From: an uncultured Catenibacterium sp.
GTDB taxonomy: Bacteria > Bacillota_I > Bacilli_A > Erysipelotrichales > Coprobacillaceae
Length of the DNA: 64,000 nucleotides
Assembly (NCBI RefSeq): GCF_900540685.1
Contig: NZ_UQGS01000001.1
Direction: 5' to 3' (one strand)
The position numbers and the translations under genes are program-made. The notes beneath the pieces were generated by a model. The model had not been told where the DNA came from and ran no database searches. It saw only the letters and a list, made by a program, of their open reading frames with translations. Positions 5,178-30,652 of this stretch are shown piece after piece. Within the stretch, counting starts at the first letter, position 1; the number at the start of each line of letters is the position of its first letter.

Positions 5178-5179
5178 TT

Positions 5180-10825: not shown

Positions 10826-10859
10826 TAATCTGAATAAAAATTGAAAGAGAAAACAAATT

Positions 10860-12559: not shown

Positions 12560-12960
12560 ATTTCCGTCCCCAACAGGGGTTAACTATTATGAATTATTTG
12601 AAGCACTCTATGGCGATGACTATGAAGTCATTGACACAAGTTTTCGTCCCCAACAGGGGTTAACTATTATGAATCAAATATGACAACAAAGAAGGTTACA
12701 ACAACAGTTTCCGTCCCTAACAGGGGTTAACTATTATGAATAAAGTCATGGTATAACATTAGAAAAATTGGATGAAGTTTCCGTCCCCAACAGGGGTTAA
12801 CTATTATGAATCAAAAGAAAGGCTTAAAGGAATTAGGAAAAATCTTGTTTCCGTCCCCAACAGGGGTTAACTATTATGAATATTTCCATGGTTCTTACTG
12901 GCAATAACTGGAACTCAGCAGAAGTGTTTCCGTCCCCAACAGGGGTTAACTATTATGAAT
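12560..12960 (-). CRISPR. Orphan CRISPR array 1, leaderless (6 repeats, 5 spacers)
   Basis: 35-nt repeat gtttccgtccccaacaggggttaactattatgaat (plus strand). Spacers are 35-45 nt. The first (low-coordinate) repeat is degenerate (gattt...), repeat 2 is gttttcg, repeat 3 is cctaac. No conserved leader on either side. Minus orientation inferred from arrays 2 and 3. Confidence 0.9.
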
Positions 12961-13213: not shown

Positions 13214-13496
13214 TTGGAATACTCCTTTCTTTTTAGAACTTTTAGTTCTTTGATATCTTACACATCAGCAGTAGAGCATTGTAGCGGATGATTTCTACAT
13301 TGGACTTAAGCCAATGGAAAGACCGAAAATTGTTTTCGACCGGTTATCCCTTTCCGGTCTATTTTTGGTACGATAAAAACAGTACCGATTATAATATGTA
13401 AGAAAAACATTTTTAAACTCGTTCGATTGCACTAAAAATCGGAGACTTTTTTATTTTTTGTCGCTCAATTTAAGAAAAGTGTTGCTATAGGCTATC

Positions 13497-14552: not shown

Positions 14553-14782
14553 CTAACCTTTTAAGATTATTTTACAACTATTCAAAAAATCATGACTTGA
14601 GTTAGAGTGCTATAAAGTAGAAAATTAGGCGTTAAGTTAAATTTAATGATCTAGTAGCAACATTTTTCATAAACTGAGCGTTTTTTGTTTGTAATTGAAT
14701 CATCACAAGAAAAAATAGGCAAAAAATAGATCCAACCATCTATGATCGAGTCTATCCATTTCTTATTTAAACTAGGACAATA

Positions 14783-16042
14783 TTAATTTGTTTTTCTTTT
14801 TCCACAAGAAGAACATTTCTGACCGGTAACTACTGTTTCTGTCCAGGCCGCTTTATCAGTAACAGTTTTTGTACCAACTTTTACTCTCTGAGTTTCGTAT
14901 ACAGCGTCGTGATGAACTGTTTCGTAAATATCTCGAGAACTACAAGAATGTCCATACTCTAACATGTGGTCGGTCATCTCACTAGGGTTGGATGTACTAA
15001 ATCCACATTGACGGCACGTCTTTACGGTCTTAACGTAAACTTTCTCATTCCAGGCATCTTTTACTTTAACCTGTCTATTTTCATAAACATCTTCCTGATG
15101 AGTTTCTGCTGGATGATTCACAGTTTTTGTAACGTTAACCCAGGTGTGTGTGTGAGATGGCTTGTTGTTTGAGCTGCTTCCACTATTTGAATTGTTTGAA
15201 CCAGAATTTGGTTTGCTAGAGCTTCCTCCATTGTTTGAACCAGAACTTGGTTTGTTTGTGCTACCAGAATTGTCTTTACTACCAGATGTAGAAGGCTTTT
15301 TAGTTTCTTCCTTCTTATCATCCTTTTTCGCTTCTTCTTTCTTAGTTTCTTCTTCTGGACTCATTGTTGGTGTAGCTGTAGTTTCAGTTTTTACTTCTGT
15401 ATTAGTAGAAGCATCAACCACGTCGCCTCCAGTTACAGTTGTAGAAGCAGGAGCTTTCTGTTCTGTTTTAACTTCGGTTCCATCAGACTTTTTAACAGTT
15501 TCTCCATTATCTGTACGGACTAGTTTATTCTGGTCAGCAAGCTTTTGCGCTTCATCCTTGTTTACAACGACTGTATCTTTTTTAACCTTAACTGTTTCAG
15601 TTTTAGTCTTATCAGTAGATTCTTTATCTGTCTTGGTTTTATCAGTAGACAACTTATCCTTTACAGTTTCAGACTTGATGAAAGCATCTTTGAATGCGTC
15701 ATAAGCTGTGCGATCAGTTGTAATACCGAAGGTAATCTTATAATTTCCTGTTTTTGAAGTGTCTACTTTAGAACTGTCTACATCAATACCTTTTACGATA
15801 GAGCTATCGTATAACACTCCATCAAGGTAATCCACGTCCTTGGAACCTTCTAATACATACATATCATCGATACCAGTATATGTATCTTTGATTGCGTCCT
15901 CGTCAAGCTTAGTCGAATTCGTTGCTACTTTATTCGTACTTTCCACTTTTGTGTCTTTCTTTGCGCCACATCCTGTTGCTGCTCCAGCAACCATGAGCGC
16001 AGCTAAAATCATTGAAATTCTTTTTACATTCTTGTTTGCCAT
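14783..16042 (-). CDS. Lipoprotein with low-complexity T/K/S/N-rich linker and duplicated C-terminal Cys-pair modules
   Basis: The track ORF extends to 16099. The preferred start is MANKNVKRISMILAALMVAGAATGC (lipobox). There are tandem DKTKTD.. and SGSNN.. repeats. Two C-terminal modules each end in CxxC (CRQCGF...HSCS and CSSCGKRK). Confidence 0.55.
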   Translation of the reverse strand: MANKNVKRISMILAALMVAGAATGCGAKKDTKVESTNKVATNSTKLDEDAIKDTYTGIDDMYVLEGSKDVDYLDGVLYDSSIVKGIDVDSSKVDTSKTGNYKITFGITTDRTAYDAFKDAFIKSETVKDKLSTDKTKTDKESTDKTKTETVKVKKDTVVVNKDEAQKLADQNKLVRTDNGETVKKSDGTEVKTEQKAPASTTVTGGDVVDASTNTEVKTETTATPTMSPEEETKKEEAKKDDKKEETKKPSTSGSKDNSGSTNKPSSGSNNGGSSSKPNSGSNNSNSGSSSNNKPSHTHTWVNVTKTVNHPAETHQEDVYENRQVKVKDAWNEKVYVKTVKTCRQCGFSTSNPSEMTDHMLEYGHSCSSRDIYETVHHDAVYETQRVKVGTKTVTDKAAWTETVVTGQKCSSCGKRKTN

Positions 16043-16367
16043 TGTTTGTTCCTCCTGTGCAATATAAATTTTTTCCATGAGCTTTTTGAAGTCACTCATG
16101 ATTCGAAGCTTTCTTCTTCGCCTCTCGCTATATATATGTCAGAAAATGCAAAATTCTTCATTTTTACATACAGCTATTTTCCTGTATCTAATTTTAGGAA
16201 CATTTTTGGGCAAATATAGTAGCTTTATCATAATTTTGGCAGAACACCCCCACCTCTATAGGTGGTGGGATGAATGCCTTCTAAAATATTTTGGCTTACG
16301 CCTCCGACCATGAAACTGTCGGGTTCTTCCCTTGCGGGAGTGGTTCACATCGCCAATGTTAATAACA

Positions 16368-16912
16368 GTTTCCGTCCCCAACAGGGGTTAACCATTATGA
16401 ATATTGAAGCTGAAGACATCCAAAAAATATTTGCTAAGGGTTTCCGTCCCCAACAGGGGTTAACCATTATGAATTTGAAATATGCGACATCAGATGAAGT
16501 TGATTTGCCGGATGTTTCCGTCCCCAACAGGGGTTAACCATTATGAATATTAGCGGAGTTAGCGAAAGAATTAGGTCATACATCGTTTCCGTCCCCAACA
16601 GGGGTTAACCATTATGAATCTTCAAAAGGAGAAATTATATATTTAACAAAAGAAGATGAGTTTCCGTCCCCAACAGGGGTTAACCATTATGAATTGGAAA
16701 GATCGGAACAACAGGCAGACAGTTTGAGGGTTTCCGTCCCCAACAGGGGTTAACCATTATGAATTTTTCATTTTATCATTTTCAACCTCTTTTTTTTTAT
16801 TAGGAAAGTTTCCGTCCCCAACAGGGGTTAACCATTATGAATACTTATAGAGTTAATAATGATTACATCATGGTAGTGTTTCCGTCCCCAACAGGGGTTA
16901 ACCATTATGAAT
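16368..16912 (-). CRISPR. CRISPR array 2 (8 repeats, 7 spacers), downstream of csm6
   Basis: 35-nt repeat gtttccgtccccaacaggggttaaccattatgaat. It differs from arrays 1 and 3 by one C/T (aaccatt vs aactatt). The conserved leader is at the high-coordinate end, so the transcribed (minus-strand) repeat ends ...GACGGAAAC. Confidence 0.95.
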
Positions 16913-17099
16913 CCTTACCTACAAAACCCTGATAAACACTACTTAAAATAACCAAAATGCGTGGCAAAACTACTTTTAGTATTCATAACCATAAGATTTC
17001 CTACAAAACCTTCATTTTTCCCAGTATTTGTCAGTAGCGTGGCAAAAAGTATAGATAAGAGTGTTCTATATCATCAAGAACACTCTTATCATACTTTAA
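16913..17099 (-). promoter_or_regulatory. CRISPR leader of array 2
   Basis: About 187 bp, near-identical to 26835-27030. Contains a perfect 10-bp-stem palindrome (17058-17086, agagtgttct-N9-agaacactct) 14 nt after the csm6 stop. Also two copies of GCGTGGCAAAA and an AT-rich promoter region adjacent to the first repeat. Confidence 0.75.
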
Positions 17100-18437
17100 T
17101 TAATCAATTCTTTCAATAATCAACTGATTCATCAAATCATAACTATTCCAGTATTCATCCTTAATATCTAAATCTGTATAACTAAATACTTTCTCTATCT
17201 TTTTCATAATCGCATTAGAAGAGAAGTTAGTCTTATCCTTTATTACATCATCTGTAACACAAACCATTTCATGTGCTGTAATATTACGAATATTACCTTC
17301 TACACTACGTAGATCTGAAACTAGATTTGCTGCTTCTTTTCTACTACTAGGTATGAAATCATTCAATAATACAACCAATGGTTCAGAATATATAGGACCT
17401 TCTTTAAAACCATTTAAATAGTAATTATTCAATGATTTCAAAACATCACTATCATTTAGTTTATCTAAATCCCATACACGCATAGAATGCTTTTTCTTCT
17501 TCTCTATTTTACAATACTTATTAATATCAATGCCTATTTCATGTTTTAATACCAATTCAAATAAGTCCACAAATAAAGGTGTAATAGATCTAATAAAGTC
17601 TGCATATTCATGTCTTCTTCTCTTTACATCAATATTTAATGCATACTCAAATAGTTTAATACCTTTATCATCCTTTACAGGAAAACAATAAGCCTTTTCC
17701 TTTAAAGACATCTCTAATGCTTTCTTATAATCCAATGATTCTCTATACTTAGCCATTTCAATCAAAGAATAATAACCTTTATCCATAGCACTCTTCTTAA
17801 TAGTCTTAGCTACTTGTAATGCTGCAGAATAATCATAAGCTTCTATATGCTTCTTAATAATTTCTTCTTTCTTAATAATAGCTAATGTAGGACATTCTAC
17901 TTCTATACATCTATTTGCAGAATCTGGGTTATTATCTTCATCTAATTCCCATAAAGTCTCATAATCATTTTCTTTATGAGAATGTTCATTAAGTTTACCT
18001 GTTGGTGTTACAACCTGTATTGTACGACAAGGTAATTCTCCTAATGTCTTTAATACAACTAACCCACTCTTCATTGCTGGTGTACCAGAAGATATATTTA
18101 AAAGGAATTCATCATCTTCATCCATATCTCCCATAATATCCATTAATATATTTCTGAAATCCTTATAGAAGTAATCAAACTCTTGTACTCTTGTAAGTTC
18201 TTTACGTTCTATATATTCCACATCTATATGTCTATTCTGTAATTCAGCTAATTTCTCTATGCAGTATCCATATGGATTATACTTGTGATGCTTTTCAGCC
18301 ATCTCCTTAGATAAATATAAAATAACTTTATCTGGCTTATACTGTCTGCATATATGCAACATAGAACCATCTCTGTAGTTATTTTCAGATATTGGATCAG
18401 TACCTCCTACAGGAGAAAACAAAATCTTTTTACCCAT
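17100..18437 (-). CDS. csm6: Csm6 CARF-HEPN ribonuclease
   Basis: 445 aa. C-terminal HEPN R-X4-H motif (NIRNITAHE). N-terminal Rossmann-like CARF region. Position at the end of a csm operon. Confidence 0.75.
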   Translation of the reverse strand: MGKKILFSPVGGTDPISENNYRDGSMLHICRQYKPDKVILYLSKEMAEKHHKYNPYGYCIEKLAELQNRHIDVEYIERKELTRVQEFDYFYKDFRNILMDIMGDMDEDDEFLLNISSGTPAMKSGLVVLKTLGELPCRTIQVVTPTGKLNEHSHKENDYETLWELDEDNNPDSANRCIEVECPTLAIIKKEEIIKKHIEAYDYSAALQVAKTIKKSAMDKGYYSLIEMAKYRESLDYKKALEMSLKEKAYCFPVKDDKGIKLFEYALNIDVKRRRHEYADFIRSITPLFVDLFELVLKHEIGIDINKYCKIEKKKKHSMRVWDLDKLNDSDVLKSLNNYYLNGFKEGPIYSEPLVVLLNDFIPSSRKEAANLVSDLRSVEGNIRNITAHEMVCVTDDVIKDKTNFSSNAIMKKIEKVFSYTDLDIKDEYWNSYDLMNQLIIERID

Positions 18438-18438
18438 G

Positions 18439-18768
18439 TTATATCACAATAATATCCTCAGATTCTTCACTTTCATCTTTACCCCAGGATATTATCTGCC
18501 CCTTTCCATTAATCTTGTATATTCTTACACTATCTTGAGTCCCTATTCTTTTAGGTATACCTTTGACTAGTTTATCAAATTTATTCTTTCTTAAGTGTGC
18601 TTCAAAAGCTGATTTCTGTACTCTTACTCCATAGCCTGATAACCATTTCGCAAATCTTTGTCTCTTTCTATTATCCACAATATCATAGATAATCAATACG
18701 AACACTTTTCTGATTGATTTATTCTCATCAACCTCAAAGAAATAATCTTCTCTTTCCATAATGATCAC
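18439..18768 (-). CDS. cas2: Cas2
   Basis: 109 aa with a Cas2 signature (VFVLIIYDIVDNRKRQRFAKWLSGYGVRVQKSAFEAHL). Overlaps cas1 by 4 bp. Confidence 0.85.
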   Translation of the reverse strand: MIIMEREDYFFEVDENKSIRKVFVLIIYDIVDNRKRQRFAKWLSGYGVRVQKSAFEAHLRKNKFDKLVKGIPKRIGTQDSVRIYKINGKGQIISWGKDESEESEDIIVI

Positions 18769-19763
18769 CTAATCATAATAGGAGAATACATTGATACATC
18801 TTCATGTATAATAGCGTCTACTAGTGAACTCATTTGAAAAGATATCGCACTTCTGAAACTTACTGGATAATCAATATAATCTAAGTATTTCTGACATATC
18901 TGAAACTTATTTTCTAGTTTCTTGATGAATTTATTCAATGCTTGTTTAGAGATATAAATCCCTTCTCCATCATCTGAATAAAATTCATCAATATGCACTT
19001 CATGTCCATTGATCATACTCATAACAGTAGAGTCTATAAGAACAGCTCTCCATTCTTCCATCATATCACTTGCAAGTGTTGGATGTTTTTCTGCATCTCT
19101 AAGAAGAAATCCAAAGTATGCATTTAAACCTTTTATCTCTATTTCCCCATAGAGTTCATTCATCAAGATAGAATAGCCTAGACTCAACATAGAATTAAAT
19201 GCATCACGAGGCGGTCTTTTACTTCTTCCTTCAAACTTAAATGCATCATCAATACAGATGGATAAGCCTTTAAAATAATACTTTGCAGCACATCCTTCAT
19301 ATCCCATGAGTTCTTCTATATTCTTTACACAATTCACTTTTCTTAAAGCGCTCTTCATATGTAATTCAATATCACTTATATTATGATTTGTGCTTTTAGA
19401 ATATCTTCTCAATACTACAATCTGATTGTGTATCTTAGCATAAATGATTTTCTTAGAAAGTTCTAATGCGAATGGTTGGTCATATAAACCTGCCTGCTTT
19501 CTTTGAAGAGAAACTTTAATATGACCTGTTGAAGATAACCTGCCAAAATAGTGACCACCCTTAGAAAAATAAGATAAAGAAATACCTTTCTTTAAACATT
19601 CTTGGATACATTGTGTTGTGACTTGTGCGTGCCCTAATAAAGTAATACCGTCAATACTTTCTACTGGAATAGTACGAACCATTCCATCTTTATACTTGAC
19701 TGTTATTCTATTATCCTGTTTACCTATCACACAATTACTTTTATCAATATACAATATACTCAT
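18765..19763 (-). CDS. cas1: Cas1 integrase
   Basis: 332 aa with Cas1 motifs (GYEGCAAKYYF, RSKRPPRDAFNSMLSLGYSIL, HPTLASDMMEEWRAVLID). No RT fusion. Confidence 0.9.
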   Translation of the reverse strand: MSILYIDKSNCVIGKQDNRITVKYKDGMVRTIPVESIDGITLLGHAQVTTQCIQECLKKGISLSYFSKGGHYFGRLSSTGHIKVSLQRKQAGLYDQPFALELSKKIIYAKIHNQIVVLRRYSKSTNHNISDIELHMKSALRKVNCVKNIEELMGYEGCAAKYYFKGLSICIDDAFKFEGRSKRPPRDAFNSMLSLGYSILMNELYGEIEIKGLNAYFGFLLRDAEKHPTLASDMMEEWRAVLIDSTVMSMINGHEVHIDEFYSDDGEGIYISKQALNKFIKKLENKFQICQKYLDYIDYPVSFRSAISFQMSSLVDAIIHEDVSMYSPIMIR

Positions 19764-19828
19764 AACGCTTCCTCCTTGTATTGTCCCTTAAAAGAGAAGG
19801 AGAAAGCTGATACTTGGTTACCCAAGTA

Positions 19829-20971
19829 TCAGTTAAGTTCTTCTATTTTGTCTAATTGACATAAACCCATTTGTAGTAACTGATCATGATAATATGTACA
19901 TTTGATTGTATGTGGAGAAATACCATAGAGACGTAAGTCATCCTCATGTTTATGAAGATTACGTCTTGTCTTCTTATCAAATGTTGTTGTATTAACCATA
20001 ATCTGCTGAACTATACGCACTGTTTGTTCACTGTCTTCTCCATCAAATAGTGGATAAACAGCTGTTTTACTAGCATATCCACTTCCTCCACCTAGAAATA
20101 CAGATTCATCATCTATGTACTGAACTGCAGTGAATGGTTCAACAAAATACTTATTATAATTGTCATCAAAGTAGTTAATGGATTCTAAAATATCCTCTTT
20201 AGTATATGGACAGATGCTTGTATCAATAGTAACTGTAAATACAATGTCTGTACCAGGCTTTAAGCACTCTCTTACTGAAGGTAAGTTTTTAGCCCCCTTC
20301 TTAACATGTACATCTACTTTTTGAGCTAATGTAAGATCTTCTACTGATAATGGTTCACTATCACTCACAATAAATCCAGCCATTATATCATTGACTGCAT
20401 CATCATACTTTGTATCTGGTCTATGTAATGTTCTAAAGGTTTTTGCTTCAATATCCTGGATATTTCTAGATAAATATCTCTTTTTGTTGGTTTCTTTTTC
20501 AAATACTTTCTCTTTGAACTGCTTTCTTTGAATCGTATAATCCTTTGAATGATTAATTAATCTATCTGCAAGAAAGATTGTTCTAAACATACCTTTAAGA
20601 GAACTACCTGGAACATAAGGATTTCCATAAGGATCCTTTACAAACTCCAACATGACATTTCTTCTTTTCGTTTCTTCGATATCCCCTTTATCCAAAGTAT
20701 ACTTAATACATTTATCAATAATAGAATTATTAATCTGATTCTTCTTTATCCAAACACCTAAATTTTCATGTTCATCTAACATAAAAGCTTCAAAAGAATT
20801 GAGCTTATTGATTTTCTTTAGTTCTAGATAAAACTTTGCGATATCAATGACTGCAATCTGATTATTCTTATAGAACAAGTATTCCTTTTTAGATAATTCT
20901 TTCCCACTCCCAATAAATACAGGGCCTACTACTTTTAAATGTATACGATAAGACTTTAAATAGTTCTTCAT
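19829..20971 (-). CDS. csm5: Csm5 (Cas7-family RAMP)
   Basis: 380 aa RAMP with G-rich loop PGSSLKGMFRTIF. Position after csm4. Confidence 0.75.
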   Translation of the reverse strand: MKNYLKSYRIHLKVVGPVFIGSGKELSKKEYLFYKNNQIAVIDIAKFYLELKKINKLNSFEAFMLDEHENLGVWIKKNQINNSIIDKCIKYTLDKGDIEETKRRNVMLEFVKDPYGNPYVPGSSLKGMFRTIFLADRLINHSKDYTIQRKQFKEKVFEKETNKKRYLSRNIQDIEAKTFRTLHRPDTKYDDAVNDIMAGFIVSDSEPLSVEDLTLAQKVDVHVKKGAKNLPSVRECLKPGTDIVFTVTIDTSICPYTKEDILESINYFDDNYNKYFVEPFTAVQYIDDESVFLGGGSGYASKTAVYPLFDGEDSEQTVRIVQQIMVNTTTFDKKTRRNLHKHEDDLRLYGISPHTIKCTYYHDQLLQMGLCQLDKIEELN

Positions 20972-21897
20972 ACTTCTACCCCCATAAATAATGGTTTTGC
21001 ATACTTATACACAGAATGGTTCCCACCTGAAGATACATCATAAACATCTCCCTCATAAGTCTTATTAAAGCAAGAACCTGCTTTAAATAAGTAAATATCT
21101 TTCTTTCTACGCTGTTCTTTAGAATAAGTATATGAGTCTACGAAACCACTTCTTTTTACAAGTAAATAACGTGAATCATCTAAAACATCATCTAGTTCAT
21201 CTTCTGTAGGAAGAGATACTGAGAGCGTCATGACTTCACCTTTTGTATTAAGACGTTTATTTAATTCTTTTGGTAATTCTGCTATTTCTAAATCAAAGTG
21301 TCCTAAGCCAGAATTCTTCTTACCACCAATACCTGATAAACTTAACATTTCGAATAATTCATCAAATAAGTCTAATATTTCTTGAGAATCATAACCTACA
21401 ACTATATATAAGCCATTCTCTTCTTTAAATCGATAAATACCTACACGATAAGGAACTGCTTCTTCGTTTCCTCTAATTGATGCAGAAGTTTTTAATGCAT
21501 GTACACCTAATTTTTTAATATCAGAACCTTTATTAATAGGATATTGTCCTTTAAGATACTGATCTAATAAAGAAACCTGTATATATTCTAGTTTCTTAAA
21601 CTTCTTACGTGTTGTCATATCTTCACTTTGAACCACCTGTTCAATCTTCTTCATTGGTTTAGGAATAAAAAACTCTTGATTCATATAAGGAAATGCATCA
21701 GAGAATACCAAATGATTCTCTTTAACACTTTTTAATAATGTCTCTAACTTATCAATCTTAAGTGCTTCTATACATAAAGCAGAAAAGAGAGTATCTGCCT
21801 GAAAAGTGATTTCTGATTTTTCTAAGGAATGTTCACCAAAATGTACACCCTGTGTAAAAATCATTTTATAAATCTTATAGTTCATGGTGCCTACCAC
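20968..21897 (-). CDS. csm4: Csm4 (Cas5-family RAMP)
   Basis: 309 aa. RAMP-like N-terminus (FTQGVHFGE) and glycine-rich segment SGIGGKKNSGLGHF. Gene order supports the call. Confidence 0.75.
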   Translation of the reverse strand: MVGTMNYKIYKMIFTQGVHFGEHSLEKSEITFQADTLFSALCIEALKIDKLETLLKSVKENHLVFSDAFPYMNQEFFIPKPMKKIEQVVQSEDMTTRKKFKKLEYIQVSLLDQYLKGQYPINKGSDIKKLGVHALKTSASIRGNEEAVPYRVGIYRFKEENGLYIVVGYDSQEILDLFDELFEMLSLSGIGGKKNSGLGHFDLEIAELPKELNKRLNTKGEVMTLSVSLPTEDELDDVLDDSRYLLVKRSGFVDSYTYSKEQRRKKDIYLFKAGSCFNKTYEGDVYDVSSGGNHSVYKYAKPLFMGVEV

Positions 21898-21903
21898 CTT
21901 TCA

Positions 21904-22611
21904 TTATTGAGATACTTTACTTAAAATCTCATTGATTTTATCTTTTACACTCTTATCTAATTGACCAATTGCTGCTTTTGCATGTAAATTAGTGAATTTA
22001 ACTTTACCATATCCTCTAGAACCACTACCACCTAAATAATCAAACTGAAGCATCTTGAAGGCTTCTGCAATGAGTTCAATATCTTCATATAAATCATCCA
22101 TATTATCTACTTCATAAAGGATATCTAAATCAAATTCTGAACCTCTTACAACTCTTTCAATCTGTCTTGGATTCGCAACTGCAGTAGCACGGTTAATTGT
22201 ATTTTCAAACTTAACTTCTGTTAAGCTGTTTAGACCTTTATTTCTTAATTCATCAGCATTAGAAAGAATCATATCAGAAATCTGGATTCTACTCTTTTTT
22301 ATATGATTCTTTTCGGCACTACCAAATACTCTTTTGATTCTTTCACAATCCTGATCAGGTTTATCCGCAACTGATTCATTATATTCTTTCGCAAGTAGTG
22401 TACGCATCTTTCCTTTTAATGAGCTTCCTGGAATCATTGGACAACCTGAAAGTACATCTTTAATAACTGGAGAATCAACTGCACCAATTGCAGCAAAAGC
22501 TGACGAACCTCCAATATGCATTCCTGTTAATACTTCAATTTTTCCTTTAATCTGAATTTTTGTATACATAATCCTACTGATCCTTTCCACCATGATATTT
22601 ATGGAATGCAA
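21904..22611 (-). CDS. csm3: Csm3 (Cas7 backbone subunit)
   Basis: Csm3 signature IKGKIEVLTGMHIGG...PVIKD...PMIPGSSLKGKMRTLL. The true start is probably the internal Met (MYTKIQIKGK) near 22569. Confidence 0.85.
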   Translation of the reverse strand: MHSINIMVERISRIMYTKIQIKGKIEVLTGMHIGGSSAFAAIGAVDSPVIKDVLSGCPMIPGSSLKGKMRTLLAKEYNESVADKPDQDCERIKRVFGSAEKNHIKKSRIQISDMILSNADELRNKGLNSLTEVKFENTINRATAVANPRQIERVVRGSEFDLDILYEVDNMDDLYEDIELIAEAFKMLQFDYLGGSGSRGYGKVKFTNLHAKAAIGQLDKSVKDKINEILSKVSQ

Positions 22612-22951
22612 CTAATGCTTCCATATACTGATAATATTGAATATATCTTTTTCTAGTTTTAATACTTTTTAAGAAAGGAAGAAGCTTAGCTGTTTCAATA
22701 AAGCTTTTCACTTTCTCATCTCGACCTGCTTCATAATAGAATCTTACTGTGAGATAACTTACTCTATCTAATAATTCTTCAGATAAGTTCTCTTCTGGGT
22801 ATTCTAATACTTCATTGAGGATATCTGCAGACATAGCCAATAAGTTTCTAATTTGTGAAACTGTTAATAATCCAACAGGTTTCCCCCTCTGATTCTTTTT
22901 TGTTTTTAATACTTTAATTGTATTTTCTACTTTATCTAGATCTAAACTCAT
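22574..22951 (-). CDS. csm2: Csm2 small subunit
   Basis: 125 aa alpha-helical protein between cas10 and csm3. Assigned by size and position. Confidence 0.65.
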   Translation of the reverse strand: MSLDLDKVENTIKVLKTKKNQRGKPVGLLTVSQIRNLLAMSADILNEVLEYPEENLSEELLDRVSYLTVRFYYEAGRDEKVKSFIETAKLLPFLKSIKTRKRYIQYYQYMEALVAFHKYHGGKDQ

Positions 22952-22954
22952 AAA

Positions 22955-25303
22955 CTACTCCTCACTTTCTCTTAGAGAATAAACAAATATGTTAATAGCT
23001 GTCTTTAGTTCACGACAGTCTTTTTCATTTTGATACCACTTATACATATGATCTGAGAATTCTTTATATGCTTCTTTTTCAGCTATAGTTGCTTTAGAAT
23101 TAGGTTCCATTCTTGCAAGTAAGTAAACAAATCTCGCAAAGTTAATTCCTTCATTTCTCTTTCTAATTAACTCTAATAAGTGATATAAGAACGCTTTTCC
23201 TCTTTCTGTATCAGACTTATCACCATTCATAGACTTTCCAAAGAACTGGTCTAATACTGCATATTTCTCTTTAATAACTCTTTCTGTAAAGTCACCCCAG
23301 GTATATGTACCATCACTAATATGATCTTCTTCACCTTCTTTATGATCTTTACCATCTTCAAATAATGTGATTGAATTCTTACCTTCATGACCTTTAGACT
23401 TATCTTCCATTTCTGCCACTTCATCAGCAATAACACTAATTGGATAAGTAGATGTATATAAACCAATACCACCTGATATAGTGAGTGTATTTTCTGTATA
23501 AGCCTTTAAAGAATCTTTTATATCAACAGCAAGTTCAATGACATCATTCCATGCACCAACTATAAATAAGTCATCTCCACCTGAATAAACAATAGCTGCA
23601 TGACGTGGATGACCTTCTTCATAATCAATATAATAAGACCCTTTCTCTAAAATACTCTTGATATGATATTTAAAGAATAAAGATAACTGTCTTGATAATG
23701 TGGCTGTACGAGAGAGTGTCATATACTTATCTGGAAAACCTGCTACAAAGGCATGTCCTAAGTTATCTACATCCGCTCTAAGTACAGCAATTCTCTTGAT
23801 ACCTTTTGATTTCTCAGCCAACTTTACAAATTCATCTTCAGAATGATAATCCCCTACCCATAGTTTAGTAGAAATACTCTTACCTGTATGAGGGTTATTC
23901 TTACAATAGGCTCTTACAAAAGAGTCATCGTTGACCATTCTTTCTTTTAGAGTTTCTTCACTATCAGATACAAGGTAATAGTCACCAGGTAATGGTAAAC
24001 CCTGTTTACTTTGTTTAGTGATAGAGAAGAAATCCATATCCATTAATTTCTTAGAGAATTTAATTAAAGATTCACAGATAGAACATTCTCCATTCTCATT
24101 CACTTTGCCTAGTCTCTTACATACTCTACATTCTCTTTCATAGTCATCTGCCTGTATCTTGTTTAATGCGATGATTTCTGTGGCTGTATAACGATGAGAT
24201 TTGTTTAATGAAAGCTTTGTAGAGAGATCTCTATAAAGTGCTGAATAAGAACCGTTTGGTTCATTCTGTAGATCTTTACTACTGCAAGGAACATAAGCAC
24301 CTGCAATATATAGAGCTGTCTGGAAGTGTTTTAAGAACCACTTATTCACATTATTGATTTCTTCATCAAATAGTGTTTGTGTTTCTTTCGTATTAGGCAG
24401 AATCATATAGCAATGACCACCACCACTATAAATAAGATTGGCACGTGAAAGATGAAGTTTATCTAATAGTGTATCAATAATATGTTCCATCATGATTTCT
24501 AGATAGAAAGAACGTGAACGTAAAGATTTCAATGCACTCTTAGTTGTAATAGTGTAAATAAACTTCTGTATTCCAGAGATATCTAGTGAAGCAAGTAAGA
24601 ATGCTTTCTTATCATAGAATAGAGATGCATTCTTATATAACTCTGTCTTGTAATCAGTAATATTTTGTTTCTTTAAGTAGGCATAGATAGCACTGGCGAA
24701 TGCAGCTGTGAGTTTTACATGATCATATAGTGATATATCAGCCACTTCTTTCTTAGATGTAGAAGAAGGCACAAATGATAAATTGGCTTCTAATACTTCT
24801 AATAATGAATTGATATAAGCATGATCTTTTAAATCTAATCCATTCAAGTTAGAAGATATATTACTTAATATTTCACTGTATTGTGATGGATTGAATTCTG
24901 TTTTTGTATTGGTAGGATAGTTGATATTATCCTTTAAACTTCCAGCATGATAATATAAATTACCTTTATTCCCATTTAAGAGATTAAATACAGGTTGTAA
25001 TGCAGTATGTATTTCAAATCCTTTGTCTTCTATTTCTTTGTTTCTTCTATCTGCACCAGAAGCGATATTATCCGCAATATAAGTAATATACGCAATAGAA
25101 TCATCTTCAATAGAAGATTGACGTAAAGCATCAGCATGATGATATCTTACTGCATTTAGAATATCTTTATCATCTGTATACTCTTTAAGATACTCATAAC
25201 CACTTTGACTATGTTTACGACTATCCATTCCTTTTCTATAAACAACTTTACCTATATCATGAAGCAAGCTTCCTATGATGATTTTAGTTTCATGATCTGT
25301 CAT
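22955..25303 (-). CDS. cas10: Cas10/Csm1 large subunit
   Basis: 782 aa. N-terminal HD motif (IIIGSLLHDIGKVVYR). Intact cyclase GGDD motif (IVYSGGDDLFIVGAW). Cys-rich treble-clef segment (CRVCKRL...CSIC). Confidence 0.9.
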   Translation of the reverse strand: MTDHETKIIIGSLLHDIGKVVYRKGMDSRKHSQSGYEYLKEYTDDKDILNAVRYHHADALRQSSIEDDSIAYITYIADNIASGADRRNKEIEDKGFEIHTALQPVFNLLNGNKGNLYYHAGSLKDNINYPTNTKTEFNPSQYSEILSNISSNLNGLDLKDHAYINSLLEVLEANLSFVPSSTSKKEVADISLYDHVKLTAAFASAIYAYLKKQNITDYKTELYKNASLFYDKKAFLLASLDISGIQKFIYTITTKSALKSLRSRSFYLEIMMEHIIDTLLDKLHLSRANLIYSGGGHCYMILPNTKETQTLFDEEINNVNKWFLKHFQTALYIAGAYVPCSSKDLQNEPNGSYSALYRDLSTKLSLNKSHRYTATEIIALNKIQADDYERECRVCKRLGKVNENGECSICESLIKFSKKLMDMDFFSITKQSKQGLPLPGDYYLVSDSEETLKERMVNDDSFVRAYCKNNPHTGKSISTKLWVGDYHSEDEFVKLAEKSKGIKRIAVLRADVDNLGHAFVAGFPDKYMTLSRTATLSRQLSLFFKYHIKSILEKGSYYIDYEEGHPRHAAIVYSGGDDLFIVGAWNDVIELAVDIKDSLKAYTENTLTISGGIGLYTSTYPISVIADEVAEMEDKSKGHEGKNSITLFEDGKDHKEGEEDHISDGTYTWGDFTERVIKEKYAVLDQFFGKSMNGDKSDTERGKAFLYHLLELIRKRNEGINFARFVYLLARMEPNSKATIAEKEAYKEFSDHMYKWYQNEKDCRELKTAINIFVYSLRESEE

Positions 25304-26043
25304 CCATTATCCCTCCTTACGATTTGTATAGCGCCCATTCCTAAACCTGTTTTAATACCTACACCAGAATATTCCCCAAATTCTAGTAATAGTCTTATAA
25401 ACTTTGCAGCTGTATCAGTACTTGTGACTTTAATAGTCATAGTACCAAAGAAAGAAGGAATTTTTACTCCCTGTAAGGGGAATAAATAAGAGCGAAGATT
25501 ATATTTTACTATCTCACTTCCTTCTACAAGCATATCTAATGTATCTTCATCAAACATACTGGCTTCTTTAAGTACAGAATCATATTTATTCATTAAACTC
25601 TGATAAATTAAGCGTAAATCAGGATAGTTGATATATCTGCAATAGCTTTTAAAAGACATAGGTGTAAGTATTCTTATTTCTAAATATCTTTCTGCAGGTT
25701 TATTGTAGAAGTGATCCATTAATTGTTCCTGGGATACCATCTTTAACTGTTTAGAAACAAATGAAATGGGTTCTTTTTCTTTATTTAAAGTAATCTGCTG
25801 GATAGAATCATCCAATATTGGATTCATCATATAGTGTGATGAATCCTCATCACATGTACATATTGTCCAATATACTTTGTCTTTGTCTTTATAAACATAT
25901 TGGCTATAAGGATGTCTATTCTGTTGGTGAAGAATAGATACATAGTCTGTATCCATTAATTCAAATAGTGCTCCTTGAAAACAAGAAGACTTTCTAAAGT
26001 CTATTTTGTCTGTAGCCAGTTCTATTTTTAGTTTCTTATACAT
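25300..26043 (-). CDS. cas6: Cas6 crRNA endoribonuclease
   Basis: 247 aa. C-terminal glycine-rich loop GIKTGLGMGAIQ typical of Cas6. First gene of the operon. Overlaps the cas10 start by 4 bp. Confidence 0.75.
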   Translation of the reverse strand: MYKKLKIELATDKIDFRKSSCFQGALFELMDTDYVSILHQQNRHPYSQYVYKDKDKVYWTICTCDEDSSHYMMNPILDDSIQQITLNKEKEPISFVSKQLKMVSQEQLMDHFYNKPAERYLEIRILTPMSFKSYCRYINYPDLRLIYQSLMNKYDSVLKEASMFDEDTLDMLVEGSEIVKYNLRSYLFPLQGVKIPSFFGTMTIKVTSTDTAAKFIRLLLEFGEYSGVGIKTGLGMGAIQIVRRDNG

Positions 26044-26397
26044 CAGGTTCCCTCCTCAATAATGTATACGCTTACTATATTATAACATAATATTTATTGT
26101 ATCCTTTCATCCACCATCCGATAATTGTAACTTTCATTGTTTAAATGAGATGAATATTTTATCGAATAGTTTATTATATAGTATTTTGTTTTGTTTTCAA
26201 ATAATTATTTAAAATTTAGTAAAAATTGGGAATAAAATACTCCTACTCCTTTACAGTATGAGTAAAGGAGTAAATTAGAATATCAGATAAAGTATGGGAT
26301 AAAGACACAATTAGAGAAGAATTAAGAAATCTATGCATAACCTACAACAATAAAATGAGATGTTTAAGTACTTTATAGGTTATTGAACATTATCAGA

Positions 26398-26430
26398 TTG
26401 TTAAAAAACATCCTCTAGGGGATGTTTTTT
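26398..26430. terminator. Palindromic terminator-like hairpin at the leader-distal end of array 3
   Basis: aaaaaacatcctctaggggatgttttttt. A/T runs on both sides, so it could be bidirectional. Confidence 0.5.
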
Positions 26431-26834
26431 TGTGTGTCCCCTAAAGGGGTTAGCTATTATGAATAATTCAAGTTGCTCAAAAGCTTGAGAAAGAACGAGA
26501 AGCAAAGTTTCCGTCCCCAACAGGGGTTAACTATTATGAATTTTATCCAAATGATACATACATAAAAAAAGGAATTATCAGGTTTCCGTCCCCAACAGGG
26601 GTTAACTATTATGAATCGTATCAAACAGTTCGAATGTGACAAGAAAGTCAACAACGTTTCCGTCCCCAACAGGGGTTAACTATTATGAATTATCGATATC
26701 AAGAAGAGTGGAGATAACGGGAATCTCCGTTTCCGTCCCCAACAGGGGTTAACTATTATGAATAACGCTTCACTACATCTATGCTTTTTGTAGTGTCAAG
26801 TTTCCGTCCCCAACAGGGGTTAACTATTATGAAT
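26430..26834 (-). CRISPR. CRISPR array 3 (6 repeats incl. degenerate terminal repeat, 5 spacers), upstream of cas6
   Basis: Repeat gtttccgtccccaacaggggttaactattatgaat (T-variant, same as array 1). The terminal repeat at 26430-26464 is degenerate (gtgtcccctaaaggggttagctattatgaat). Leader at the high-coordinate end. Confidence 0.9.
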
Positions 26835-27030
26835 CCTTACCTACAAAACCCTGATAAACACTACATAAAATAGCCAAAATGCGTGGCAAAACAACTTTTA
26901 GTAATCATAACCATAAAATATTCCACAAAACGTTAATTTTTCCCAGTATTTATCAATAGCGTGGCAAAAATACAAATAAGAGTGTTCTTACATCATTAAG
27001 AACACTCTTATCATACTTCAGTCAATTAAC
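26835..27030 (-). promoter_or_regulatory. CRISPR leader of array 3
   Basis: Near-identical to 16913-17099. Palindrome 26979-27008, followed on the minus strand by cttatttgtattttt (terminator-like). Two GCGTGGCAAAA boxes. Confidence 0.75.
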
Positions 27031-27075
27031 TCTTTCAATAATAATCCTGATATTTCAGAACTAATCAGACCTTTC

Positions 27076-28539
27076 TTAATCTAGAAAATATGCTGCTACT
27101 TTATCTTTACCAACTAATATTTCTTCAGTTGGAACACCACATGATTTAGCTAACTCAATAGATCCTTCAAACGCAAGAGATATATCTGGTGCAAATGCCT
27201 TATCAAGTAATTCCATAAATATCTGCATATCTTTACCCATTTCATCTACAAACTCTTGATACTGTTCATTGAGTTCTTTATCCACAATATATATCGATCT
27301 TCTATACTCTTCAAATATCTTCTGTTCATAAGATGAGAAGTTATCTTTTGCAATCTGATACATCATAGTTCCTACTGTATTACCAATAACTGCACCTATA
27401 ACTGGTACAGGAATAAGTACTTGTCCTGCAAATGAAGATAGTGCACTTACTGATGCATCCAAGCACAACATTTCAGAATTTTCTATAAATGTTTGTTCGT
27501 CTATTTGTCCTTGTTTTAATTGATAAACTTGATCTGCCACTCCAAAAGATGCTGTTACTATAGCACTCGCTACTGCTGCAGGTGTTGCACTATAGTTAGA
27601 AAGTGTATAAATTGATGCACCTCTAATACCACCCTTTAAAGTGCCTTTTCCTGTTGCTCCTGCAATATCTTTCCAATCATCACCATTGAAATCTTTAAGT
27701 TTCTTTCCTTCTTTTCTCTTTTTATTGATTTCTAAGCATAATGATGAAGCTCCTTCAATTCCTGCAGAAACAACTGTTGCTTTTACGCCTTCAGATAATT
27801 TAGGTGCAGCTTCCTCTTTTGCATGAGCTACTCTTTCCTTATTTGTTTTCTTTAAGCTATCAACTTCTTTTGAAAAAGTCTCCTCATATTTACCTTTCTG
27901 AACCTCATCATATCTTAATTTAGATGGTTCTACTTTTTCAAAAGGAATATCTCCTTCTTCAAAGAACTTATGCACTTCTTTCCACTGTTTCAATGAAAAT
28001 TCACCTGTAGAAGTAGGCATCTTATTAGCCTTTTCCTCTGGAATAGAGAGTAGCCATTTAATTCTATCATAATGGTCCTTTGGAATTTGATAAGCTTTAT
28101 TGTTATCTAAATAGTCTGGATATTGATTAAAATGTTGACGAATAGCATATAGTGATAAATGCCCACCTGAATTCACAAATTTCTGTTGAATCAATATATT
28201 TCCTCTTTGCAAATCATCAGGACCATTATCATTAATCCACTTATAGATAGGAACTTTACCCACTATCTGTTCTCGTGCGTTACCAATACCACATTCTGAA
28301 ACTTCTGCAATAAACCCATGCATTCCCTTTACGCCACCACGACCTTTTCCATTATTAACTATATCTACACTAATTTTATTTAATGTTTCGTTTATAGTAG
28401 CCATAGCTTCATTTAAATTAGATTGTTCTTGCTTCAACACCTCATCCATCTGATTCAAGCGTACTTGATTTAAATAGTTAATCCAGGAAGCAACAGCTTG
28501 TTCCTGTCCACTTTTAATAATTGTAGTCTTATCCATCAT
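27076..28539 (-). CDS. Hypothetical coiled-coil protein with Gly/Ala/Val-rich hydrophobic core segment
   Basis: 487 aa. N-terminal helical region with G-rich patch (NNGKGRGGVKGMHGFIAEVSECGIGNAREQ). Hydrophobic stretches AAVASAIVTASFGVA and SALSSFAGQVLIPVPVIGAVIGNTVGTMM. No signal peptide. Family not recognisable. Confidence 0.5.
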   Translation of the reverse strand: MMDKTTIIKSGQEQAVASWINYLNQVRLNQMDEVLKQEQSNLNEAMATINETLNKISVDIVNNGKGRGGVKGMHGFIAEVSECGIGNAREQIVGKVPIYKWINDNGPDDLQRGNILIQQKFVNSGGHLSLYAIRQHFNQYPDYLDNNKAYQIPKDHYDRIKWLLSIPEEKANKMPTSTGEFSLKQWKEVHKFFEEGDIPFEKVEPSKLRYDEVQKGKYEETFSKEVDSLKKTNKERVAHAKEEAAPKLSEGVKATVVSAGIEGASSLCLEINKKRKEGKKLKDFNGDDWKDIAGATGKGTLKGGIRGASIYTLSNYSATPAAVASAIVTASFGVADQVYQLKQGQIDEQTFIENSEMLCLDASVSALSSFAGQVLIPVPVIGAVIGNTVGTMMYQIAKDNFSSYEQKIFEEYRRSIYIVDKELNEQYQEFVDEMGKDMQIFMELLDKAFAPDISLAFEGSIELAKSCGVPTEEILVGKDKVAAYFLD

Positions 28540-28544
28540 TTACA

Positions 28545-29675
28545 CTACACCTCTACATTCTCACTAAGTGTTGCAGCAAGTGACTTTGCATTATTCACAA
28601 GAGTCCCCAACAACATTTGTTGGTCTTCAGATAGTTCTAAGAAATTCTTTCCATAACAAGGCATACACTGACCATATTGAGTATTCAACATTTCTCTTAA
28701 CTTTGATGTCTTATCAAGTAATTGTTTAACTGCATAATTAATCTCTTTAATAGATTCTACATTACGTAAAACTGCTTCAATCTCTTCTTTTTTCTCTTTG
28801 CCTAACTTCATCTTCTTATTAGCAAATAACACCACTGAAGCAAGTAATGTAGCACCACTAATAGACCATCCAACAGGTCCTGCAAGAGCTAAGAATGCAT
28901 TTCCTGCAGCCATTCCTCCACCACCAGCTGCTAGAGCACCCCCTCCAAGCCAAGCTAATTTTGCACTTGTTGCTGCAGCACCTGATAAAGCTGATATAGC
29001 TGTTCCTGTAGATGCTGTACCAAATGTTGTCGCAACCCACATTGCTGCACTAGGTGCTAAACTTGCAACAGCAACACCACATGATAATCCTGCTCCTACA
29101 CTTAATGCGGATTTCTTTGCTGCACTTAATTCATCTACAGCATAGTCACATACATCTTTAAACTTCTTCTTTTCTACTTGAATATCCTGAAGATCTACAT
29201 CAAAACTCTTAGGATGATTCGCAATACTATTAATCAATATTTCTACATTATTCAACACATCTACTGAACGTTCTCTTTGTCTTAATATAGATGAACCATA
29301 GCCTTCAAACTCTGCATATTCCGCATTATACTTATTCACCGCATCATGTAATTGATCGTCAAGACTGACTTCTTTATGGTCTTTAAAATCTTCAACAGAT
29401 TTCTTAAAAGATTCAGCACCTCTATAAAGCATATCTCCACCATCTTTAAGTCCTTGAGATACAAATGAAGCACCATCTTTTGCACCTTGAGAAACTGTAT
29501 CAAATATTTCAGTACCCATTTTCTGTATATCAATATCTTTTAATTTATCTCCTGCAGCATCACTTAGTTCCTTAGCACGCTTATCTATCTCTGCATCAGA
29601 AACTGCTTTAACTACTTTCACTCTTGCATCATCAATTCCATCTTTGACATCATCAATCATTTTACTGATCTTCAT
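28545..29675 (-). CDS. Hypothetical coiled-coil protein with ~95-aa glycine-zipper hydrophobic core
   Basis: 376 aa. Charged, helical N- and C-terminal thirds flank LSVGAGLSCGVAVASLAPSAAMWVATTFGTASTGTAISALSGAAATSAKLAWLGGGALAAGGGGMAAGNAFLALAGPVGWSISGATLLASVVLFA. 6-bp spacing to the downstream gene. Confidence 0.5.
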   Translation of the reverse strand: MKISKMIDDVKDGIDDARVKVVKAVSDAEIDKRAKELSDAAGDKLKDIDIQKMGTEIFDTVSQGAKDGASFVSQGLKDGGDMLYRGAESFKKSVEDFKDHKEVSLDDQLHDAVNKYNAEYAEFEGYGSSILRQRERSVDVLNNVEILINSIANHPKSFDVDLQDIQVEKKKFKDVCDYAVDELSAAKKSALSVGAGLSCGVAVASLAPSAAMWVATTFGTASTGTAISALSGAAATSAKLAWLGGGALAAGGGGMAAGNAFLALAGPVGWSISGATLLASVVLFANKKMKLGKEKKEEIEAVLRNVESIKEINYAVKQLLDKTSKLREMLNTQYGQCMPCYGKNFLELSEDQQMLLGTLVNNAKSLAATLSENVEV

Positions 29676-29688
29676 AAGTTCTTCCCTC

Positions 29689-30162
29689 CTACATACCTTG
29701 TTCTTTTCTTATTTGTTTTATCTGATCTTTATATGTCTTATTATTCTCTTCACTCTTTACTGGAATAGAATATCTCTGTATATATTCTATCACTTTCTTT
29801 TGTTCTTCTAATACTCTTATCGTATTATTGATTTTATTTACTTTCTCTTCTATTACAGTTTCCTGTTTTCCTCCTTCTAGAATGAGTTTGATTTTCTTCA
29901 AATCAAACCCCATTTCCTTATACCATAAGATTTCCCATAGTCTTTCCATTGTCTCATCATCATAGAGTCTATAATTATTCTTTGATCGTTTAACAGGCAA
30001 TATACCTTCATCATCATAATACTGCAATGTACGCTTACTCACTCCTGATAACTTACTAACTTCCTCAATCTTCTTAAACACGTTATTTACATCCTCATAG
30101 CTTGAGGATACGCTATCACGTAAACGTGATAGCAATACCCACCCTACGAATCTCCTTTCCAT
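29689..30162 (-). CDS. MerR-family transcriptional regulator
   Basis: MerR HTH (VSKLSGVSKRTLQYYDDEGIL) followed by a coiled-coil dimerisation helix. The true start is probably downstream of the annotated ATG. Confidence 0.7.
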   Translation of the reverse strand: MERRFVGWVLLSRLRDSVSSSYEDVNNVFKKIEEVSKLSGVSKRTLQYYDDEGILPVKRSKNNYRLYDDETMERLWEILWYKEMGFDLKKIKLILEGGKQETVIEEKVNKINNTIRVLEEQKKVIEYIQRYSIPVKSEENNKTYKDQIKQIRKEQGM

Positions 30163-30610: not shown

Positions 30611-30652
30611 AAAAAGCCTATTGGGATGCAACTCCCGCAAGGCTTTTTTATT
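30611..30652 (-). terminator. Rho-independent terminator downstream of the XRE-regulator operon
   Basis: aaaaaagcc-tattgggatgcaactcccgcaa-ggctttttt. A/T tracts on both sides. Confidence 0.55.

Follow-up and report, generated by a model that had tools for sequence, protein, structure and literature searches.

A 64,000-nt stretch of contig NZ_UQGS01000001.1 from an uncultured Catenibacterium sp. (assembly GCF_900540685.1; hereinafter, the window) carries a type III-A locus of CRISPR arrays and CRISPR-associated (cas) genes, with the gene order cas6-cas10-csm2-csm3-csm4-csm5-cas1-cas2-csm6 on the minus strand and a leader-bearing array at each end. The two leaders contain a pair of short boxes, at fixed distances from the first repeat, which recur in type III-A, III-D and VI-A loci that share homologous Cas1-Cas2 adaptation modules, and which are probably an undescribed signal for the site of spacer insertion. 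We assign a probability of roughly 70% to the best explanation taken as a whole, namely, a complete type III-A (Csm) locus, intact at the sequence level and recently used, together with this reading of the leader boxes. Taken by itself, the locus is an ordinary member of type III-A, with a gene order that many gut Bacillota share. Its leader is of greater interest, as it bears on the way in which the adaptation modules of types III and VI locate the leader end of the array; the known leader-folding mechanism depends on the integration host factor (IHF), which these hosts are not known to have.

A duplicated leader unit with twin boxes

The leaders of array B, downstream of csm6, and of array C, upstream of cas6, each comprise, from 5' to 3' on the minus strand, a sigma-70-like site, a hairpin, box 1 and box 2, followed by the first repeat, which begins 57 bp after the start of box 2:

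16913..17123, minus strand: leader unit B, with box 1 at 17037-17047 (-135), box 2 at 16959-16969 (-57) and a hairpin at 17046-17097
26835..27045, minus strand: leader unit C, with box 1 at 26959-26969 (-135), box 2 at 26881-26891 (-57) and a hairpin at ~26967-27019
17116..17088, minus strand: sigma-70-like TTGAAA-17-TATGAT of leader B, 10/12 consensus matches, with the -35 element in the last csm6 codons
27038..27010, minus strand: sigma-70-like TTGAAA-17-TATGAT of leader C, 10/12 consensus matches

An earlier note on this DNA had described the two flanks as the same leader, and they indeed align, the units being ~90% identical (92% over the 171 nt of 16878-17048 and 26800-26970, and 87% over the 54 nt of 17067-17120 and 26989-27042). 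It had also placed in each leader two boxes about 70 bp apart; both boxes are present in both leaders, but their spacing is 78 bp from start to start. In the 64 kb of the window, the box (TTTTGCCACGC, minus strand) is found in exactly four copies, against 0.32 expected with up to one mismatch.

The homology between the leaders extends ~24 nt into the 3' end of csm6 (…IIERID and the stop codon), and a remnant of this csm6 tail is found in leader C at ~27019-27045, 10 kb from csm6 and beside an unrelated gene. Given this remnant, leader C is, to judge from the nucleotide sequence, a duplicate of the csm6-adjacent leader unit B. Both leaders of the locus in a sister species (L001) likewise carry the csm6 tail, which makes the duplication older than the split of these Catenibacterium species. 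The sigma-70-like site lies within the duplicated segment; if, as its consensus match suggests, it is the leader promoter, this would explain why the csm6 tail was copied along with the leader.

The hairpin of each leader calls for several corrections. Its stem, previously given as a palindrome of 10 bp, is perfect over 14 bp and reaches ~21 bp when folded (the two copies give -25.5 and -23 kcal/mol, with z-scores of -8.6 and -6.1). In copy B, the hairpin does stand right after the stop codon of the preceding gene, csm6, whereas in copy C it lies ~57 nt from the stop codon of the gene at 27076, because the csm6 remnant intervenes. The hairpin, earlier described as terminator-like, has a stable stem followed by a T-run; this T-run is part of box 1, and the promoter-like site overlaps the 5' arm, where its -10 element sits. 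A terminator scan called copy C terminator-like but not copy B, in which the loop is longer than 8 nt; the stems are AT-rich, with 4 GC pairs.

Conservation of the boxes across loci and effector types

Relatives of the locus were collected in a Cas1-anchored scan with one genome per species, which yielded 58 loci, and their layouts were read by tblastn with the window proteins and an array finder. The boxes were surveyed in 38 leaders anchored on the first repeat, and information content was computed from 32 non-redundant leaders. In most of the 38 leaders, boxes of the form TTTT[G/C]CCNCGC are located at -57 and ~-135 from the first repeat. Strict matches on the same strand number 42 in 904 kb of loci, of which 37 fall inside the 6.5 kb of leaders, 17 exactly at -57 and 15 exactly at -135; the opposite strand has only 6 strict matches in the same 904 kb. 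Box 2 (TTTTsCCnCGCAAA, -57 to -44) reaches 1-1.8 bits per position, the level of the repeat itself, whereas the remainder of the leader is for the most part close to 0. Less strongly conserved are an A-run (-65 to -61), a T-run (-97 to -93), GGG (-17 to -15) and AGG (-3 to -1). The leaders contain a conserved motif whose distance from the leader-repeat junction is fixed, while the sequence separating the two is not conserved. Four loci have a displaced box 1, with the spacing increased by 11, 20, 22 and 22 bp, that is, by ~1 or 2 helical turns.

An independent scan of metagenomes, in which the search pattern specified nothing beyond the two boxes and the distance between them, returned 40 matches, in 30 of which a CRISPR repeat starts exactly 57 nt after box 2. 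Most of these show the layout csm5-[leader-array]-cas1, one is VI-A-like and two are III-D; the remaining ten matches are GC-rich non-CRISPR sequences or end without downstream sequence. The 38 leaders, the 904-kb count and the metagenome scan together lend strong support to the proposal of the earlier note that the boxes are a candidate site for a leader-binding factor.

The boxes follow the adaptation module and not the effector or the repeat. In addition to type III-A, they accompany type VI-A and III-D effectors, where homologous cas1-cas2 genes (43-58% identity of the products) and the same boxed leader are combined with different interference machinery. The VI-A locus, from Lachnospiraceae (L048; Cas13a, E 1.5e-152), has boxes at -57 and -155 (box-1 spacing 98 bp) in front of an unrelated repeat, and three III-D loci (L011, L020 and L038, with Csx10 and Csx19) combine the same Cas1-Cas2 clade with a boxed leader. 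The features of two of these loci are:

L048, 3453-7253: cas13a
L048, 7426-9861: leader and array
L048, 9992-11315: cas1-cas2, with Cas1 43% identical to that of the window
L011 (Eubacterium plexicaudatum ASF492), 2483-3603 and 10001-20191: Csx10, Csx19, a TIGR03986 repeat-associated mysterious protein (RAMP) and a DxTHG CARF-like protein

On the negative side stands one outgroup, a Fusobacterium type III-A leader with the same repeat family and a Cas1 38% identical to that of the window, from which the boxes are absent; in a search for close plasmid-borne relatives of the window Cas1, none exceeded 38% identity, the top match being the one used as this outgroup.

These comparisons bear on the idea that the boxes are functionless fossils of two decayed repeat-spacer units, for which one might invoke the 78-bp box spacing, within the 70-78 bp period of the array, and the superficial likeness of CCCCCGCAAA to the CCCCGnAAG stem-loop of many repeats. 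Local alignment of the boxes to their cognate repeats gave no signal relative to shuffles and control segments (mean z 0.22 and 0.05 against 0.34 and -0.39 for the controls), and a fossil-repeat origin was rejected. Moreover, the boxes are unchanged beside the unrelated VI-A repeat but absent from the Fusobacterium leader of the same repeat family, and they are conserved to the level of functional repeats while the neighbouring leader positions are unconstrained, all of which makes this explanation highly improbable.

Some loci depart from the common pattern in other ways. One leader (L009, 12684-12841) has three boxes, at -157, -57 and -37, and two loci (L041 and L057) contain two tandem arrays between csm5 and cas1, which may reflect internal duplication of the leader. 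In the III-D region of L011, IS4 and IS481 transposase genes and a TnpB gene are interspersed among the cas genes.

Possible function of the boxes

Conservation at the level of the repeat, positions held within 1 bp, a constant orientation, independence from effector and repeat and association with one Cas1-Cas2 clade are best explained if the boxes form an address for integration, and we see roughly even odds that they play a role in integration. Under the proposed mechanism, the leader would be a ~140-nt unit whose two TTTT[G/C]CCNCGC boxes, at -57/-135, would position the Cas1-Cas2 integrase, either unaided or jointly with a host protein that bends DNA, at the first repeat, and the leader, rather than the repeat, would be the main address for this Cas1-Cas2 clade; the identity of the box-binding factor is one that we infer. 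A bolder version, which we put forward tentatively and at somewhat less than even odds, is that the twin boxes are a leader code read by one Cas1-Cas2 clade and addressing integration in place of the repeat sequence. If true, it would explain how one adaptation module serves III-A, III-D and VI-A systems with unrelated repeats in bacteria without IHF, and the leader-array cassette would be a portable unit that fits several slots of the locus.

Such docking is most closely paralleled by the motifs found upstream in the leaders of type I-E and I-F systems. These lie 50-200 bp from the repeat and are contacted by Cas1 or Cas2, and integration requires a host factor that folds the leader (bioRxiv 10.1101/2023.05.26.542337). 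The I-E and I-F motifs are likewise short, conserved and set at fixed, phase-sensitive distances, ~50 bp and 100-200 bp upstream; by contrast, their sequence is different, and the I-F motifs form an inverted pair where the window has two direct copies. For acquisition in the type III-A system of S. epidermidis, cas1 and cas2 together with a leader-repeat are enough; that study did not take the leader apart into its elements (PMC8860600). In the part of the literature that was covered, we found no account of a type III-A leader motif or of a Catenibacterium type III-A system, which is weak evidence.

Leaders normally hold the promoter of the array, and the boxes could accordingly be transcriptional elements, such as a promoter UP element, a -35-like element or an operator for a regulator of the precursor CRISPR RNA (pre-crRNA), with no part in integration. 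Indeed, the box of the window contains TTGCCA, a 5/6 match to the -35 consensus, T- and A-runs accompany the boxes, and TATAAT-like hexamers are found between the boxes, near -95 to -88, in several leaders. Yet the 32 non-redundant leaders have no sigma-70-like -35/-10 pair at a consistent position, and a common promoter position was rejected given that the best pairs scatter from -143 to -33; the common box variant TTTTCCCCCGC is unlike a -35 element, and the invariant box positions are the CGC and the T-run. The distance of 57 bp to the repeat, kept within 1 bp over three effector types, is to be expected of an integration signal and is not needed by a promoter. Nor is any regulator gene conserved, only cas1-cas2 co-occurring with the boxes in III-A, III-D and VI-A loci. 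To our knowledge, the box has no convincing counterpart among the consensus sites of cre, CodY, Rex, LexA, ComK and sigma-54. Collectively, these observations render a purely transcriptional role unlikely.

A second alternative, also unlikely although slightly less so, is that a conserved DNA-binding protein of the host, for instance a nucleoid-associated or architectural one, recognizes the boxes and Cas1-Cas2 is recruited indirectly, as by IHF in I-E and I-F systems. The requirement for a leader-folding host factor in the latter systems, the two direct box copies with spacing variants of approximately whole helical turns, which would suit an architectural complex, and the origin of most box-bearing loci from one phylum all speak for it. 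Bacillota, however, are not known to possess IHF, and the DNA binding of HU depends little on sequence, so that we know of no Bacillota protein that would be a candidate for recognizing a GC-rich 11-mer. The boxes are also found in a Synergistales metagenome-assembled genome (L037), and they track the Cas1 clade across effector types. Fusobacterium lacks the boxes, too, yet this case cannot separate the host from the Cas1 clade.

Several points weigh against the boxes being an integration address and against the account of the locus built around it. Box 1 is less conserved than box 2 and degenerate in several loci, and the helical-phase reading of its variants, post hoc and derived from four loci, is suggestive. 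The link between the boxes and Cas1-Cas2 consists of co-occurrence and a single negative outgroup. The hosts are mostly Bacillota, with the Synergistales genome as the sole exception, and host lineage and Cas1 clade are thus partly confounded; the reader of the boxes could instead be a conserved host protein, RNA polymerase or a regulator. No IHF-like DNA-bending site was identified in the leaders, in which no search for the IHF consensus was made. A 10/12 promoter match such as those in leaders B and C also arises in shuffled sequence. Finally, the direction of the array relocation proposed below is drawn from the frequency of layouts and not from a rooted tree.

A motif at fixed distances, common to three effector types, lends itself to precise and cheap mutations that would put an address signal to the test. 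If the boxes are such a signal, they would explain the swapping of adaptation modules between CRISPR types and would help in the design of heterologous spacer-recording systems.

The cas gene set

The cas genes were called with the curated cut-offs of NCBIfam and with Pfam domains, and catalytic motifs were read in the translations. Nine contiguous open reading frames (ORFs) on the minus strand, 17100-26043, all pass the NCBIfam cut-offs and have matching Pfam domains, which confirms the complete type III-A locus and the gene order described previously and upholds every Csm and Cas assignment:

25300..26043, minus strand: cas6, NCBIfam 63.4 bits against a cut-off of 58.65; Pfam match
22955..25303, minus strand: cas10/csm1, TIGR02578 784 bits against 170; Pfam HD, Csm1_B and palm2
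22574..22951, minus strand: csm2, NCBIfam 56 bits against 30.6; Pfam match
21904..22611, minus strand: csm3, NCBIfam 220 bits against 90; Pfam match
20968..21897, minus strand: csm4, NCBIfam 305.7 bits against 55; Pfam match
19829..20971, minus strand: csm5, NCBIfam 120 bits against 38.3; Pfam match
18765..19763, minus strand: cas1, NCBIfam 259.5 bits against 71.7; Pfam match
18439..18768, minus strand: cas2, NCBIfam 52 bits against 24.5; Pfam match
17100..18437, minus strand: csm6, TIGR02672 502 bits against 150; Pfam CARF, 6H and HEPN
19807..19832, minus strand: 11-bp hairpin over the csm5 stop codon, -16.9 kcal/mol, z -7.0
26173..26200, minus strand: candidate promoter of the cas operon, TTGAAA-16-TATAAT, proposed from 11/12 consensus matches only, in the 386-nt gap before cas6

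The models for Csm2, Csm3, Csm4 and Csm5 are TIGR01870, TIGR02582, TIGR01903 and TIGR01899, all matched above cut-off. The true start of csm3 is probably the ATG at 22569, and cas2 probably starts at the ATG at 18759. Cas10 has an intact HD motif (LLHDIGK) and an intact cyclase motif (SGGDDLF, with GGDD), Csm3 has the Asp motif (IGAVDSP), and Csm6 has the R-X4-H motif of HEPN nucleases (RNITAH) behind its CARF and 6H domains. The nearest solved structures of Cas10 are in the Csm complexes of S. epidermidis, L. lactis and S. thermophilus (E 4e-169 to 1e-145: 7uzw, 4e-169; 6xn3, 3e-159; 6nud and 6ifn, ~1e-145), and those of Csm6 are the Csm6' of S. thermophilus (8pcw) and the Csm6 proteins of Enterococcus italicus (6tug) and S. 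mutans (4rgp). For Cas1, the nearest structures are type I-D, I-C and I-G Cas1, none of them an integration complex of its own clade.

From established knowledge of type III-A systems, the pre-crRNA would be transcribed from the leader side on the minus strand and cut in the repeats by Cas6, leaving an 8-nt ACGGAAAC tag on the CRISPR RNA (crRNA). The Csm complex would then bind complementary phage transcripts, whereupon Cas10 would attack DNA and make cyclic oligoadenylate, the activator of the CARF-HEPN RNase Csm6, while Cas1-Cas2 would insert spacers at the leader-repeat junction of both leader-bearing arrays.

Arrays, repeats and spacers

The 35-nt repeat, ATTCATAAT(A/G)GTTAACCCCTGTTGGGGACGGAAAC on the minus strand, is found in 19 copies when up to 3 mismatches are allowed, where 0 would be expected. 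They fall into three arrays:

16368..16912, minus strand: array B, downstream of csm6, 8 repeats and 7 spacers
26430..26834, minus strand: array C, upstream of cas6, 5 perfect repeats and a degenerate terminal repeat at 26430-26464, 5 spacers
12560..12960, minus strand: array A, a leaderless orphan, 6 repeats, 3 with point mutations

The earlier note had two arrays bracketing the locus, and arrays B and C do lie at its two ends, but the total is three, array A having been missed. The first repeat of the latter abuts a truncated signal-peptide ORF (12961-13214), and the array has an IS110 transposase gene (10905-12197) on one side and a transposase gene of the IS1595 family (13497-14552) on the other; array A is probably a decaying fragment displaced by insertion sequences (IS).

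That the arrays are transcribed in the same direction as the cas genes, as previously stated, is supported by the orientation of the repeat, with its 3' …ACGGAAAC handle, the position of the leaders, the degenerate repeats at the low-coordinate ends and the orientation of spacer B1, antisense to a viral ORF. The handle would become the 8-nt tag of the crRNA, and Cas6, just over its cut-off, is found together with a repeat ending in ACGGAAAC; processing itself is predicted only. Consistent with the same polarity, the terminal repeats are decayed at the low-coordinate ends, and a terminator-like hairpin comes after the degenerate repeat of array C. In array B, every one of the eight repeats has a G variant (ATAATGGTT), which is missing from arrays A and C and from L001, a pattern that fits growth of the array by copying of its first repeat.

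Acquisition is indicated by Cas1 and Cas2 above cut-off, the decay of terminal repeats, a viral match of spacer B1 and the turnover of spacers relative to L001. B1, the leader-proximal spacer (16843-16877), matches an IMG/VR viral contig (L059) at 34 of its 35 bases and is antisense to the 5' end, that is, the first codons, of a plus-strand ORF (543-1136) on that contig; the flank of the protospacer is not complementary to the crRNA tag. The antisense orientation and the unpaired flank are what transcription-dependent type III targeting requires, here in the case of one spacer. The spacers of arrays B and C had no match among cultured phage genomes (blastn in 'distant' mode), spacer C1 had no exact match in IMG/VR, and no spacer matches elsewhere in the 64-kb window with up to 5 mismatches, as would a self-targeting one. 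The window and L001 have zero spacers in common. The two arrays of L001 hold independently acquired spacers that overlap the same 22-nt protospacer, which indicates that both leader-bearing arrays acquire spacers.

Gene order and array slot among relatives

The two loci closest to that of the window are from Catenibacterium, with 96% Cas1 identity, and the rest are mostly from Lachnospiraceae and other Clostridia, with 40-63%. Among the 58 loci, cas1-cas2-csm6 downstream of csm5 is the norm, the same relative order being found in ~40. At least 25 have the layout cas6-cas10-csm2-5-[leader-array]-cas1-cas2-csm6, and nine further partial contigs are consistent with it ([array]-cas1-cas2-csm6). 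In L007 and L031, the slot between cas2 and csm6 is the one that the array occupies, and in L009, L001 and the window the array follows csm6; L024 and L037 have the order csm6-cas1-cas2.

The earlier note regarded cas1-cas2 as nested inside the effector operon. Their position between csm5 and csm6 is correct, but this is the usual layout of a large clade, and csm5 and cas1 have a hairpin between them in the window and the array between them in most relatives, for which two modules are a better reading than adaptation genes within one effector operon. Start and stop codons overlap or abut inside both blocks, cas6 to csm5 and cas1 to csm6, each of them translationally coupled, and the 65-nt gap between csm5 and cas1 holds the hairpin listed above, followed by a T-rich tract and a ribosome-binding site. 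This hairpin marks the border of the two modules: the locus is made up of an effector module and a cas1-cas2-csm6 module, with a leader-array cassette whose slot varies.

The compactness of the locus might instead be taken for a special functional coupling, peculiar to it, in which the adaptation genes are co-expressed within the effector operon. Nine contiguous genes on one strand, overlapping or abutting codons within each block and a csm5-cas1 gap of only 65 nt would fit. Such a coupling is improbable, considering that ~40 of the 58 relatives have the same relative order, usually with a whole array between csm5 and cas1, that the short gap of the window is occupied by a stable hairpin and then a T-rich tract, and that the cas1-cas2-csm6 block is also found with other array positions (L007, L031 and L009).

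Under the two-module reading, the gene order of the window would be a derived form of the widespread layout of effector module, leader-array and cas1-cas2-csm6. The internal array slot is empty here, and the cassette would have come to lie after csm6 and then been duplicated, with the last ~24 nt of csm6, upstream of cas6. Type III-A loci from gut Clostridia, Lachnospiraceae among them (L003-L057; Petralouisia muris, Butyribacter intestini and Zhenpiania hominis are examples), have the same modules, repeat family and twin-box leader, with Cas1 only 40-63% identical to that of the window; there the leader-array mostly lies between csm5 and cas1, whereas in Catenibacterium this slot is empty, the cassette stands after csm6 and a second copy is upstream of cas6.

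Among the model type III-A systems, those of S. epidermidis RP62a, S. thermophilus and L. lactis have the same full gene set as the window. Their array arrangement differs, the window having two leader-bearing arrays and one orphan, and their cas1-cas2 genes are at the upstream end of the locus, not between csm5 and csm6. The CRISPR2 repeat of S. thermophilus presumably ends in the same …GGGGACGGAAAC handle as the repeat of the window. The type III-A locus of Mycobacterium tuberculosis has the order cas6-cas10-csm2-6-cas1-cas2, and L024 and L037 have the same relative order; in this type of locus, as in the window, the adaptation genes lie downstream of the effectors on the same strand, but csm6 precedes cas1-cas2, whereas in the window it follows them.

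Neighbourhood and loss of the locus

Upstream of leader C, the ORFs 27076-28539 and 28545-29675 match PDC-M09, a candidate defence system of PADLOC (M09B, E 6e-215, and M09A, E 5e-125), and the helix-turn-helix of the adjacent MerR-type gene (29689-30162) also matches 'mad1' (E 7e-13). All that can be detected of the two PDC-M09 ORFs in L001, the sister species, is a 144-nt remnant of one. The presence of these ORFs beside leader C, with a mere remnant in L001, places the CRISPR locus in a variable defence island.

A Catenibacterium-like contig from a human gut metagenome (L090), which shares ~94% identity with the window, runs from merR and PDC-M09A/B through leader C to a single degenerate repeat. 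Its positions 1417-4812 and 4813-5525 align to 30196-26799 and 16147-15436 of the window, and the whole 16148-26798 segment, with arrays B and C and the nine cas genes, is missing; L090 is a natural cas-less variant with a solo leader-repeat scar. Such an absence would fit recombination between the leaders or arrays that flank the locus as direct repeats, and it suggests that such flanking repeats ease the loss of the whole immune locus. The missing segment includes the 220 nt (16148-16367) between the last repeat of array B and the region upstream of a lipoprotein gene, which by eye are GC-richer than the sequence around them and have no Rfam match; searches for known RNA families gave nothing credible, whether at gathering thresholds (12000-31000) or with E values of up to 1 allowed (16050-17150).

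The ORF 14783-16099, located between arrays A and B, encodes a predicted lipoprotein (signal peptide …AATGCG) with tandem repeats of low complexity, rich in Ser/Thr/Lys, and C-terminal Cys-rich motifs; it has no family match, and DNA repeats of 39 nt and 30 nt are found at 15189-15273 and 15592-15651. The ORF 13497-14552 was considered as a CARF_TM ancillary effector (E 0.0017) and rejected, its product being the IS1595-family transposase mentioned above, with an N-terminal zinc ribbon. Elsewhere in the window, 42-nt and 54-nt tandem repeats at 55896-56066 lie within the minus-strand ORF 55532-56296 and are unrelated to the CRISPR locus.

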